Below, one piece after another: positions 1,207 to 10,773 of a stretch of DNA of 10,773 nt. The notes under the pieces are model-generated. The model did not search any database. It was given only the letters and a program-made list of their open reading frames with translations, and was not told where the DNA came from. Source of the DNA: an uncultured archaeon (lineage in GTDB: Archaea > Asgardarchaeota > Lokiarchaeia > Sigyniarchaeales > SOKP01); NCBI GenBank assembly GCA_964508365.1, contig CAZDTP010000092.1:1-10773 (forward strand). The letters are read 5' to 3'. Positions within the stretch are counted from its first letter, which is position 1. The number at the start of each line of letters is the position of its first letter. Made by a program: the position numbers and the translations under genes.

Positions 1207-1215
1207 CGATAGGTA

Positions 1216-1773
1216 ATTTCATACCGTGGTAAAGTTATACTCTGTGGTAACCCAGCTGTAGGAAAAACAAGTTTGCTTGCCCGATATGTCGATGGCAAAT
1301 TTCAAGAGGATTCAGCGCCAACGATAGGTGCTAATTTCTTGATAAAAGAAATTGATTTAAGTAAGATTGTTGATAAGTTAAACTTAGATAAACCTGAACT
1401 AAAGCAGGATATAAAGGAAAAAGGATTTAAGTTGTATTTTTGGGATCTTGGAGGGCAACACGATAAATTATACAGCACGGAATACTATTTTGTTCAAGCT
1501 GTTGGAGCTATGATCGTTTTTAACTTAAACGATTTATCGACGTTCAATGATATAAATTTTTGGTTAACTAAATTAAAAGATTTAAGTGGGGATGTTCCTT
1601 ACATTCTAGTTGGAAACAAAAAAGACTTAGATAGAAATGTAGATAAATCGCTAGTTGAAGCAGAAGTAAAGAAACTAGGTATTCAATATTTTGAGACTTC
1701 TGCGAAACTTAATGAAAACGTTGATTTGGCTTTTGAAAGTTTATCTATTCAAATTTTAAATAATCTTAAATAA
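1216..1773 (+). CDS. Ras-superfamily (Rab-like) small GTPase, about 185 aa, probable non-canonical ATT start
   Basis: The reading frame extends upstream of the track start (1273) to include the P-loop: (M)SYRGKVILCGNPAVGKTSLLARY. Other motifs: G2 PTIG, G3 WDLGGQ, G4 NKKD, G5 ETSAK. An in-frame TAG lies at 1210-1212, and no ATG/GTG/TTG occurs between it and the P-loop. Confidence 0.9.
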   Translation: MSYRGKVILCGNPAVGKTSLLARYVDGKFQEDSAPTIGANFLIKEIDLSKIVDKLNLDKPELKQDIKEKGFKLYFWDLGGQHDKLYSTEYYFVQAVGAMIVFNLNDLSTFNDINFWLTKLKDLSGDVPYILVGNKKDLDRNVDKSLVEAEVKKLGIQYFETSAKLNENVDLAFESLSIQILNNLK

Positions 1774-5630: not shown

Positions 5631-7628
5631 TTGTCTGAAAAACAGACCACTGATAAGATAAGAATTGGAGTTTATGTGTGTAGATGAGGTGTAAATATTG
5701 GAGCCCACCTTGATTGTGATGCTGTCAGAGATTTTGTTGAACCATTACCTAATGTTGTTATCGCTCGGACCAACAATTTCACTTGTAGCGATCCTGGACA
5801 ACAAATAATCAAAAATGACATTCTAGAACTAGATTTGAACCGAATAGTCGTAGCAGCTTGCACTCCTAAGATTCATGAACCTACTTATCGAGCTGTTTTA
5901 CAAGAAGCAGGTTTAAGCCCTTACTTCTTTGAAATGGTAAATCTTAGAGAGCACTGCTCGTTTGTTCATCAAGGTGATAAAACAAACGCAACCGAAAAAG
6001 CAAAACGATTAGTTCACGCCGGTATAAATAGAGCACGGGAATTAGAAAGTGTCCCTTACAAGGAAATACCTGTAGAAAGAGCTGCATTAGTTATAGGAGC
6101 GGGAATTGCCGGAATGAACGCAGCTTTAGACTTAGCGGAACACGGGATACAAGTCTATTTAGTTGAAAAACAAGCAACCGTTGGAGGTAAAATGGCACAG
6201 TTTGATAGGATTTACCCTACAGATGATTGTGGTATATGAGTTCTTGCCCCTATTATGGTTAACGCTTCAAAACATCCTAATATCAAACTTTTCACCTATA
6301 GCGACATTATCGAGTTTAGCGGTATCACGGGAGATTACAATGTTAAGATACGTAAAAATCCAAGGTATGTGAACGAAAGCAAGTGTACCGGATGTGGCTT
6401 ATGTACTACTAAATGTCCTATAAAAGTTCCTAATGAATTTTATAATGGGATTGGTGAAAGAGGTGCAATCTATATACCATTTCCTCAAGCAGTCCCAAAT
6501 TATGCTGTTATGGATAAAAGTGTGTGCATTGATTGTAAAAACTGCGAACGAGTTTGCCCCGCAGAAGCAATAGAATTTGAACAAGTACCCGAAATTGTTG
6601 AGGTTAAGGTAGGGGCTGTTATCGTTGCTACAGGATTCGATGAATATCCAATTATTGAGACTAATGAATACAATTATGGCATTTCTCCAAATGTTATTAC
6701 TCAGATCGAAATAGAGAGTATGCTTAGCCCAATCGGTCCAACTGGAGGACACATATATAGAATCTCAGATGGAAAAACACCTAAAACTGTTGTGATGATA
6801 CAATGCGTTGGTTCTAGATCGCTAAAAGCGAATCCTTATTGTTCATTTGTGTGCTGCAGTGTTGCTCTTAAAAATGCTCAATTACTAAAACAAGAGTATC
6901 CCGAAATGGATGTTGTAATATTCTATATAGACATTAGGACTACTGATAAGGGCAACGAGGAATATTATAGAAAAATTAGAGACGCTGATGTTAGAATGAT
7001 ACGAGGAAAAGTAGGTGAAATAACCGAGGACAAAGATAATAATTTAATAGTACGCGCTTATTCCTCTTTAACGGGGGAACTTATTAAGATTAAAGCTGAT
7101 TTGGTAGTATTATCTACTGGAATGAATCCTTCAAGAGGGACTATGGAAGCCATTGAAGTTTTAGGTTTAAGTAAAGGTCCAAATGGATTTTTAACTGAAA
7201 TTCATGGTTGTTTGAAGCCGCAAGAAACAAATAATCTTGGGATTTATATTTGCGGATGCGCAGCAGGACCCAAAAACATCCCATATTCCGTTTCTACAGC
7301 CCTAGCTGCTGCTAGCAAAGCTGCTGCCTTACTTTCTCATAAAACCATTATTCAAGAATTAATCATTGCTGAAGTCAATGAGACTTTGTGTTTAGGATGT
7401 CATAGATGTGAAAAACTATGCGAATATCAAGCAATAAGCATAGATGACGGAATTGCTCATGTTGATGAATTGAAATGTAAGGGATGCGGAGTTTGTATAT
7501 CATCCTGCCCAGCAAGAGCGATCGATCTTAAATATTATCGAGATAGGCAATTCGAAGCTGAAATCAAAGGAATCGGAATGAGCGAAATAGACAGTATTCA
7601 AAAAGAATCAACTAAAATAGAAAACTAA
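5631..7628 (+). CDS. hdrA: Heterodisulfide reductase subunit A (FAD, multiple [4Fe-4S]), 665 aa, probable selenoprotein with two in-frame UGA (codon 19 at 5685-5687 and codon 203 at 6237-6239)
   Basis: Track ORFs 5835-6239 and 6255-7628 are in the same frame as the TTG at 5631. Read-through gives MSEKQTTDKIRIGVYVCR-U-GVNIGAHLD...CSDPGQ...VVAACTP...NLREHCSFVH...GAGIAG (FAD)...YPTDDCGI-U-VLAPIMVNASKHPNI. It continues with two CxxCxxCxxxC, then QCVGSR...YCSFVCCSVALK, then two C-terminal ferredoxin motifs. Both TGA align with conserved Cys (CHCG and DCxxC+L.P). Confidence 0.93.
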
Positions 7629-9697: not shown

Positions 9698-9741
9698 CAA
9701 ACAAACCTTCTTTACTACTAAACCAAAAAATTAATATTAAA

Positions 9742-9749
9742 TTTTATAT
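9742..9749 (+). promoter_or_regulatory. Putative TATA box of the rps13-rps4 operon
   Basis: TTTTATAT is about 40 nt upstream of the rps13 ATG, compatible with a short 5' leader. Confidence 0.3.
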
Positions 9750-9786
9750 TAAGAATTATAAGAATAAGAAACATAATATCGGTAAA

Positions 9787-10266
9787 ATGAGTTTAACTAC
9801 TAGACCTAGCAACTTTCGGGAAAAAGTGTTTTTTCGAAAACTCCGATCTCAAGTTGATGGAAACGCAAAAGCAGAATATGGATTAACTCAAATAAGAGGA
9901 ATTGGAAGGAGATTCGCTCAAGCAATTGTAATGATTGCAAAAATCGACCCTAATTTAAGGATTGGTGCCATTACCGAAAAGGATTTAAACAAGATTGAAG
10001 AAATAATCTTAGATCCTATTACACAAGGTATCCCAACTTGGATGGTAAATCGTAAAAATGACCTAGTTACCGGGGAGAGCTTACACATAATCGGAAATCG
10101 ACTCGAATTATCGGTAAGACGAGATATCGATAGAATGAAACGCATCAGAAGTTATAAAGGCGTTCGACACCACCGCGGTCTTAAAGTTCGAGGTCAAAGA
10201 ACTAAAAGCACTGGACGACACGGACTAGTCGTTGGTGTTATGAGAAAAAAGAAAGGACAACCATAA
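9787..10266 (+). CDS. rps13: 30S ribosomal protein uS13 (archaeal S13p), 159 aa
   Basis: GLTQIRGIGRRFA, P.WMVNR..D..TG...H+, DIDRMKRIRSYKGVRHHRGLKVRGQRTKSTGRHG. Confidence 0.98.
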   Translation: MSLTTRPSNFREKVFFRKLRSQVDGNAKAEYGLTQIRGIGRRFAQAIVMIAKIDPNLRIGAITEKDLNKIEEIILDPITQGIPTWMVNRKNDLVTGESLHIIGNRLELSVRRDIDRMKRIRSYKGVRHHRGLKVRGQRTKSTGRHGLVVGVMRKKKGQP

Positions 10267-10271
10267 GGTGA
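10266..10271 (+). promoter_or_regulatory. Shine-Dalgarno AGGTGA for rps4, overlapping the rps13 stop
   Basis: TAAGGTGAATAAACATCGGAGAT: the SD ends 6 nt before ATC 10278. Confidence 0.75.
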
Positions 10272-10277
10272 ATAAAC

Positions 10278-10773
10278 ATCGGAGATCCAAGAAGGTTAAA
10301 GAAAAAATTTAAAAAACCTAAACGCCCCTTTGAAAAAGAAAGACAAGCCGAAGAACTCGAGTTTCTAGGAAGATTCGGTCTTAGAAACAAACGTGAGTTT
10401 TGGAAAATGCGTACCACACTCGGCAATTGGCGGAGTCTTGCGAGACAGTCCAGAACAATGCCTCAAGAAAAAGCTATTGAAGTCCAACAAACTCTAATTA
10501 AAAAGTTAGTTAAACTCGGAGTTTTAGGTTCTGAAGCGGGATTTGAAGATGTATTATTACTTACCGTTGAAGACCTACTAAAACGAAGATTACAAACGCT
10601 TGTTTTTGAGAAAGGTTATGCTAAAACTATCTATCAAGCCCGACAATTCGTCGTTCATGGCCATATTCAAGTAAAGGGCAAAAAAATTAACGCACCTTCT
10701 TACATCGTTAAAAAAGAAGAAGAAGACATGATAGGATATACTCCTAGCAGTCCACTCTCCACAGTTAAAGAAA
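10278..10773 (+). CDS. rps4: 30S ribosomal protein uS4 (archaeal S4p), truncated by the window end, probable non-canonical ATC start. Not in the ORF track.
   Basis: Translation (M)GDPRRLKKKFKKPKRPFEKERQAEELEFLGRFGLRNKREFWK...LTVEDLLKRRLQTLVFEKGYAKTIYQARQFVVHGHIQV...APSYIVKKEEED matches archaeal uS4. It follows rps13 as in the conserved S13-S4-S11-RpoD operon. Confidence 0.96.
   Translation, partial: MGDPRRLKKKFKKPKRPFEKERQAEELEFLGRFGLRNKREFWKMRTTLGNWRSLARQSRTMPQEKAIEVQQTLIKKLVKLGVLGSEAGFEDVLLLTVEDLLKRRLQTLVFEKGYAKTIYQARQFVVHGHIQVKGKKINAPSYIVKKEEEDMIGYTPSSPLSTVKE

Follow-up and report, generated by a model that had tools for sequence, protein, structure and literature searches.

The window, the whole stretch of 10,773 nucleotides analysed here, comes from the genome of an uncultured archaeon of the Sigyniarchaeales (Lokiarchaeia) and ends inside a ribosomal protein operon. 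The gene for uS13 (rps13) is followed there by the gene for uS4 (rps4), the reading frame of which has ATC at the position where a start codon is expected. The features of this region are:

9733 to 9752, + strand: AT-rich box (AATATTAAATTTTATATTAA / AATATTAAATTTYAYATTAA), 35-54 nt before the rps13 ATG
9787 to 10266, + strand: rps13 (uS13) coding sequence, opening with ATG and closing with TAA (10264-10266)
10267 to 10271, + strand: Shine-Dalgarno (SD) motif GGTGA, directly 3' of the rps13 stop
10278 to 10280, + strand: ATC, putative rps4 initiation codon, at the aligned start position in 16 species and at Met1 of solved uS4
10278 to 10773, + strand: rps4 (uS4) coding sequence, interrupted by the contig end, with its last codons on contig C124
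10407 to 10409, + strand: ATG codon 44 of rps4, an internal Met and the earliest ATG, GTG or TTG in the rps4 frame

Positions 10264-10289 read TAA-GGTGA-ATAAAC-ATC-GGA-GAT-CCA, with the spacer ATAAAC at 10272-10277 and the codons GGA GAT CCA at 10281-10289. The TGA at 10269-10271, contained within GGTGA, is in frame with rps4 and shuts the frame upstream of the ATC, and between this stop and the conserved N-terminus (ATA AAC ATC GGA) there is not a single canonical start. The original prediction, made from the letters of the window, had read the stop, SD, spacer, ATC, in-frame TGA and codon 44 as the first canonical codon correctly throughout. Translation from the ATC gives IGDPRRLKKKFK. In solved ribosomes (Pyrococcus and other archaea), the uS4 chains 4v6u_AD and 9fhl_D begin MGDPK, and their Met1 is matched by the isoleucine of the ATC codon, so that the conserved archaeal MGDP start does have ATC at its Met position, as had been proposed. 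A phmmer comparison of the rps4 product with 4v6u_AD (E = 6e-43) pairs query residues 3-163 with chain residues 1-161, and Pfam places the S4 domain (PF01479) at residues 105-151 of the product (E = 9e-15). The archaeal operon context rps13-rps4-rps11 is also present: rps13 immediately precedes rps4, and rps11 comes after it, on contig C124 here and as the next gene in relatives. By its full-length similarity, including the N-terminal MGDP segment, its S4 domain and its operon context, the product is identified as uS4. The genome, with an estimated completeness of 100%, has one copy of rps4, and contig C124 overlaps at its start with the last 18 codons of the gene. Contig ends fall inside rps4 in nine of 32 metagenome-assembled genomes (MAGs) of the genus, the source genome among them, at differing positions; these breaks are likely due to tangling of the assembly graph at a highly conserved gene shared by co-occurring strains.

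The rps4 gene was located in relatives and the codon at the aligned start position was read, 30 genomes of the genus being readable there. The counts are:

Genus (30 genomes): ATC 16, ATA 3, ATG 11
Other families of the order (10 genomes): ATC 0, ATA 0, ATG 10
Wider scan of GTDB species genomes (overlapping the genus set): ATC 14, ATA 3, ATG 52

Among the Promethearchaeota sampled in the wider scan, ATC and ATA are confined to the genus, and every locus outside it has ATG. Within the genus, ATC is found in the source genome and in 15 sister species at the same aligned position, in assemblies from many different projects and samples. Regardless of whether the start is ATC, ATA or ATG, almost every genus genome retains GGTGA (rarely GGTG or GTGA) 6-7 nt upstream of it, and in all of the genus genomes 2-14 nt separate the rps13 stop from the rps4 start position. 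The rps13 start itself is ATG in every genus relative examined. In a maximum likelihood tree of S13 and S4, 13 of the ATC genomes form one clade (support 100/98) and the other three fall without resolution at the base of the genus, a topology compatible with a single origin of ATC for all 16. The ATA genomes lie in a different clade, adjoining an ATG genome. ATG at the rps4 start has thus been lost at least twice within the genus, the change from ATG to ATA being, on this tree, a second and independent change at the same codon.

What follows the ATC has the signature of coding sequence. In a gap-free alignment of codons 2-45 from the 16 ATC species, codon positions 1, 2 and 3 have on average 1.41, 1.20 and 2.23 alleles, respectively. 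Just 20% of the third positions are without variation; the ATC itself is invariant. The protein segment IGDPRRLKKKFKKPK is unchanged throughout these species, and at the junction the spacer between SD and ATC varies while GGTGA and ATC are constant. This pattern indicates purifying selection in frame from immediately after the ATC. Since about 20% of synonymous third positions are invariant as well, the constancy of ATC is weak evidence of selection on the codon itself, but it may be compatible with selection for a particular expression level via AUC. The central claim of the original prediction, near-cognate initiation at the ATC, is in agreement with these observations: the codon occupies the exact position of the relatives' ATG, 6 nt after a conserved GGTGA, and in-frame selection begins right behind it, all of which points to initiation there. 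The ATA at 10272, which had been offered as an alternative start, does not survive the comparison, as other ATC species have TTA, TTT, CAA or TGT at this codon, which moreover adjoins the SD without a gap. Initiation at the GTG within the SD (10268) followed by a frameshift into the rps4 frame was also considered and rejected: the GTG runs into a stop in one species (GTG ATT TGA in L004), and the ATG species have the identical GGTGA.

Two readings would do without a near-cognate start altogether. Met44 (ATG 10407) is the earliest canonical codon in the frame and the choice of a standard gene finder, and a start there would yield an N-terminally truncated uS4. Residues 1-43 are under purifying selection, however, and align one-to-one with solved archaeal and eukaryotic uS4, so that this start would delete all 43 of them; the earlier warning that conserved residues would be lost was well founded. 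Met44 moreover has no preceding SD, and two of the ATC species, L022 and L041, have Ser or Ala in its place, for which reason it cannot be a conserved start. We regard a Met44 start as extremely improbable. The notion that ATC is a sequencing or assembly error, or that rps4 is a pseudogene, might draw on the fact that the contig stops within rps4, as nine of the 32 genus assemblies do. Against it, ATC at this position in 16 species-level MAGs from different projects excludes an assembly error; the comparison of Asgard genomes that had been suggested as a check found the ATC shared by 16 genomes and so speaks against an error. The frame is intact in a single-copy gene of a genome estimated to be complete, and other genes also show phylogenetically coherent near-cognate starts. 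There is next to no chance that error or gene decay accounts for the ATC.

To assess the occurrence of such starts across the source genome, each codon behind a GGTGA was considered if it opens a reading frame of at least 100 codons without an in-frame canonical start upstream. ATG peaks genome-wide at spacers of 6-7 nt after GGTGA, and the rps4 ATC, at 6 nt, sits at this preferred spacing. At these spacers ATG was found 30 times, TTG 17, GTG 6, ATH 24 and ACG 6, and the remaining 54 codons together 15 times. At control spacers of 12-30 nt, ATH is at background and ACG close to zero (odds ratio 12.5 for spacers 6-7 against control, p = 3e-13). Shortening the motif to GGTG gives, at the optimal spacer, 91 canonical starts as against 51 near-cognate ones (ATT 22, ATA 13, ATC 8, ACG 8), a near-cognate excess of about 44 above background (p = 3e-17). 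CUG (0-1 cases), AAG and AGG are essentially unused as starts after GGTGA. These counts suggest that ATA, ATT, ATC or ACG, preceded by a strong SD, serves as the start codon of at least 40-50 genes of the genome. The enrichment belongs to SDs of the GGTG(A) type and is not seen behind GGAGG, where ATH (8, against 35 for other codons at spacers 7-12) is at about background level.

Protein domains provide a second view of these genes. Twenty near-cognate candidates were submitted to Pfam, and in about a dozen of them the domain begins (at model position 1-9) ahead of the first canonical codon, within residues 1-19 of the protein read from the near-cognate start. The genes supported in this way are a RagA-like GTPase (ATA), two response regulators (ATC and ACG), PheT B1 (ATA), RuBisCO-N (ATT), MGMT (ATA), DsrE (ACG), a DeoC aldolase (ATT), a PIN protein (ATC, first canonical codon 80), AFOR_N (ATT, first canonical codon 43) and subunit C of the A-ATPase (ACG, first canonical codon 41). 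The pheT start is ATA in 12 genus genomes, ATT in six and ATG in six, with ATG in the outgroups, and ATA occurs mostly in genomes that have ATC at rps4. For rps11 (uS11; G000:C124 ~343-735, L031), the source genome has an open frame without a canonical start and ATT where its closest relatives, 96-98% identical, have ATG. The spacer between rps4 and rps11 measures about 290 nt in the source genome, compared with about 10 nt in relatives.

Elsewhere in the window, at 1213-1773 (+ strand), lies a gene for a Ras-family small GTPase, in which position 1 of the Pfam Ras model matches residue 7 of the open frame. Its first canonical start, TTG at codon 21, would delete the P-loop GNPAVGKTS, and the start is likely ATT 1216, after GAGGT at 1202-1206, making this a candidate second near-cognate start in the window. 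A separate departure from ordinary decoding may occur at ~5640-7628 (+ strand), where an HdrA-like flavin/Fe-S protein is encoded in one continuous frame across TGA at 5685-5687 and 6237-6239. The contexts of these codons are VCRUG and DCGIUV, and both are probably selenocysteine codons; selenoproteins in Lokiarchaeota are described in work cited in PMC8211752.

Beyond the source genome, the genome-wide pattern was examined in one other genome of the genus and in one from another family of the order. The counts, each with its p value against the genome's own background, are:

G000 (source genome), whole genome: canonical 91, near-cognate 51, other codons 46, p = 3e-17
G024 (same genus, ATG at rps4 and pheT), 800 kb: canonical 21, near-cognate 6, other codons 7, p = 0.015
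G037 (family f2), 1.6 Mb: canonical 28, near-cognate 5, other codons 12, p = 0.19

The samples are small and the differences between genomes marginal (G000 against G037, p = 0.023), and the near-cognate habit appears to be genus-wide and is perhaps weaker or absent outside the genus. The near-cognate candidates of G024 include gcvT. A literature search of incomplete coverage found no description of near-cognate starts in Asgard archaea or Lokiarchaeota.

The machinery that would read these codons was sought in the source genome. ARAGORN reports 14 tRNAs without its intron mode and 29 with it, and misses the initiator tRNA-Met in both: the intron-free run lists no tRNA-Met at all, and the run allowing introns adds just a CAU tRNA of the elongator type, with a G1-C72 pair. 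A pattern search recovered an initiator tRNA-Met at G000:C25 ~38488-38643 (- strand), with a long intron outside the canonical position. It is canonical in having A1-U72, the GGG/CCC anticodon stem and the anticodon CAU, and an unusual initiator tRNA is therefore ruled out as the cause of near-cognate starts. The same contig encodes the initiation factor aIF1 (SUI1; G000:C25:11566-11904, L135 1426-1764), whose frame lacks a canonical start ahead of the ICPIC zinc knuckle and has ATT instead, 9 nt after GTGA. This ATT is kept in all 18 genus genomes in which the gene was found, including those with ATG at rps4 and pheT; at the same position family f2 has TTG, GTG or ATA and family f4 has ATG.

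We consider it very probable that rps4 is translated from AUC 10278, positioned by GGUGA and decoded by Met-tRNAi, as one instance of a relaxed selection of start codons shared across the genus and not as a device specific to rps4. The ribosome would be placed by the GGUGA SD 6 nt upstream of the AUC, and the ordinary initiator Met-tRNA (anticodon CAU) would read the codon with a third-position mismatch, yielding the usual MGDPRR N-terminus. Under the same relaxed selection, AUA, AUU, AUC and ACG after a strong SD would start many ordinary and essential genes of the genus. This proposal takes the position of the start, its conservation, the coding signature, the genome-wide enrichment and the normal initiator tRNA from comparison of sequences; from these we infer decoding of the AUC by Met-tRNAi, at an efficiency that would be high enough for a stoichiometric ribosomal protein. 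The codons used each depart from AUG by one mismatch, at the second or third position, and SD-positioned initiation by Met-tRNAi with tolerance of the mismatch is therefore the simplest mechanism. In E. coli, AUC initiates at 1-2% of the level of AUG, and near-cognate starts still insert Met (bioRxiv 10.1101/063800). Stoichiometric production of uS4 would accordingly need far more efficient decoding than this, or help from coupling to rps13.

Coupling could in principle carry the whole burden, if the AUC were usable only by ribosomes that end at UAA 10264-10266 and reinitiate 11 nt downstream without a full check of the start codon. The rps13 stop lies within 2-14 nt of the start in all genus genomes, and 17 of 30 near-cognate genes lie directly behind a co-directional open reading frame. 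Species that keep ATG have the identical tight junction, though, so coupling leaves the change from ATG to ATC unexplained, and strict retention of the SD is what SD-directed initiation predicts. The other 13 of the 30 near-cognate genes have no adjacent upstream frame, and the coupled share (17/30) equals that of canonical SD-led genes (24/53, p = 0.37), which gives no support to coupling as a general requirement for near-cognate starts. An obligatory role at rps4 seems to us unlikely, and with the stop only 11 nt upstream rps13 coupling may still assist there. It is highly improbable that initiation instead uses the cognate elongator tRNAs (Ile for AUC, AUU and AUA, and Thr for ACG), so that uS4 would begin with Ile. 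Abundant cognate elongator tRNAs do exist for all the codons used. Yet each of these codons differs from AUG by precisely one mismatch, the genome has a canonical initiator tRNA, and the specificity of aIF2 for Met-tRNAi is established. In E. coli, AUC and ACG starts give N-terminal Met, with trace Thr at an ACG start (bioRxiv 10.1101/063800).

A further reading takes the AUC to be a regulatory device specific to rps4, in which selection preserves a weak start that tunes or autoregulates uS4 synthesis in the manner of the infC AUU or the bacterial alpha operon. The original prediction had raised autoregulation in the S13-S4 operon as a possibility. The ATC is invariant in 16 species although most nearby third positions have changed, and in bacteria S4 is an RNA-binding protein that acts as translational repressor of the alpha (S13-S11-S4) operon, a conserved operon of the same proteins. 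Repression of that kind needs a structured leader at rpsM, whereas neither the rps13 leader nor the rps13-rps4 junction has conserved structure here. For 30 genus sequences of the junction, RNAalifold gives two invariant pairs, no covariation and a consensus energy of -0.66 kcal/mol, and in the rps13 leader the consensus structure of the genus sequences has 0 pairs; an S4 operator of the bacterial type is not apparent at either place. The fold of the single sequence at the junction is unremarkable (z = -1.0), and an Rfam search of the whole window returned zero matches. In the absence of a consensus structure or Rfam match, an rps4-specific regulatory element is without support. Near-cognate starts are moreover found genome-wide, in about 50 unrelated genes, and ATG or ATA suffices at rps4 in sister clades. 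The suggestion of autoregulation at this junction has thus not been borne out, and a dedicated device is improbable. The AT-rich box at 9733-9752 is nearly invariant among 29 genus sequences, with variable flanks, and is probably the promoter of the operon (TATA/BRE-like); a promoter at this position would leave rps13 with a short leader that lacks a strong SD.

Relaxed selection of start codons, which we prefer as the explanation for the rps4 AUC, may itself be connected with aIF1. For Sulfolobus, work cited in PMC8211752 ascribes to aIF1 a discrimination against non-canonical starts. As a hypothesis only, the conserved AUU start of aIF1 might be linked to relaxed stringency in the genus. It is possible, though we put it forward tentatively and would not expect it on balance, that the genus evolved a relaxed, eukaryote-like stringency in which aIF1-AUU forms a feedback loop like those of eIF1 and IF3, allowing turnover from AUG to AUH or ACG even at rps4. 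If true, this would place tunable near-cognate initiation in archaeal relatives of eukaryotes. The initiation core of aIF1, aIF1A and aIF2 that Asgard archaea share with eukaryotes, in combination with the AUU start of aIF1, makes the genus a natural system in which to ask how start-codon stringency is set and by what steps it came to resemble that of eukaryotes. Dependence of essential, stoichiometric uS4 on AUC in 16 species would also imply decoding far above the 1-2% of E. coli. There is a practical consequence too: gene finders limited to ATG, GTG and TTG will truncate or misplace the starts of uS4, PheT, uS11, aIF1, ATPase subunits and dozens more, and will thereby distort protein families and phylogenomic marker alignments in these Asgard genomes.

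NCBI translation table 11 formally lists ATT, ATC and ATA as prokaryotic starts, which keeps the rps4 case within the known code. These entries stand for rare exceptions, however, and standard gene finders, using ATG, GTG and TTG only, would cut rps4 to Met44. The closest bacterial parallels are the AUU starts of infC (encoding IF3) and pcnB in E. coli, where, as is proposed for rps4, the only possible start of a functional gene is an AUH codon behind an SD, read by the initiator tRNA. They are the only two confirmed cases there, with AUH at 1-2% of AUG (bioRxiv 10.1101/063800), whereas in the source genome at least about 44 genes are involved, including those for ribosomal proteins and an aminoacyl-tRNA synthetase. 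The autoregulatory logic of infC is inapplicable to rps4, as rps4 encodes no fidelity factor and uS4 has no known role in start-codon proofreading. It is aIF1, elsewhere in the genome, that shares this feature, being a start-codon fidelity factor with a near-cognate start (ATT) of its own. Among archaea, ribosome profiling of Haloferax volcanii placed about 30% of putative alternative initiation sites at near-cognate codons, although the alternative and novel sites were set aside by the authors to limit false positives (PMC7261190). Unlike the rps4 AUC, those sites did not provide a conserved essential gene with its only start, and leaderless transcripts predominate in Haloferax.

The likeness to eukaryotes lies in the codons and in the factors. 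Non-AUG initiation under the control of eIF1 uses the same single-mismatch codons AUA, AUU, AUC and ACG via Met-tRNAi, and archaeal aIF1, aIF1A and aIF2 are homologous to the eukaryotic core (PMC6412873, PMC5103072). The means of positioning differ, the source genome apparently relying on the SD where eukaryotes use scanning and Kozak context, and CUG, the best eukaryotic near-cognate, is nearly absent from the source genome (0-1 cases). Finally, near-cognate initiation in eukaryotes mostly serves upstream open reading frames and N-terminal extensions, whereas in this archaeon near-cognate codons appear as the only start of the main reading frames of housekeeping genes.
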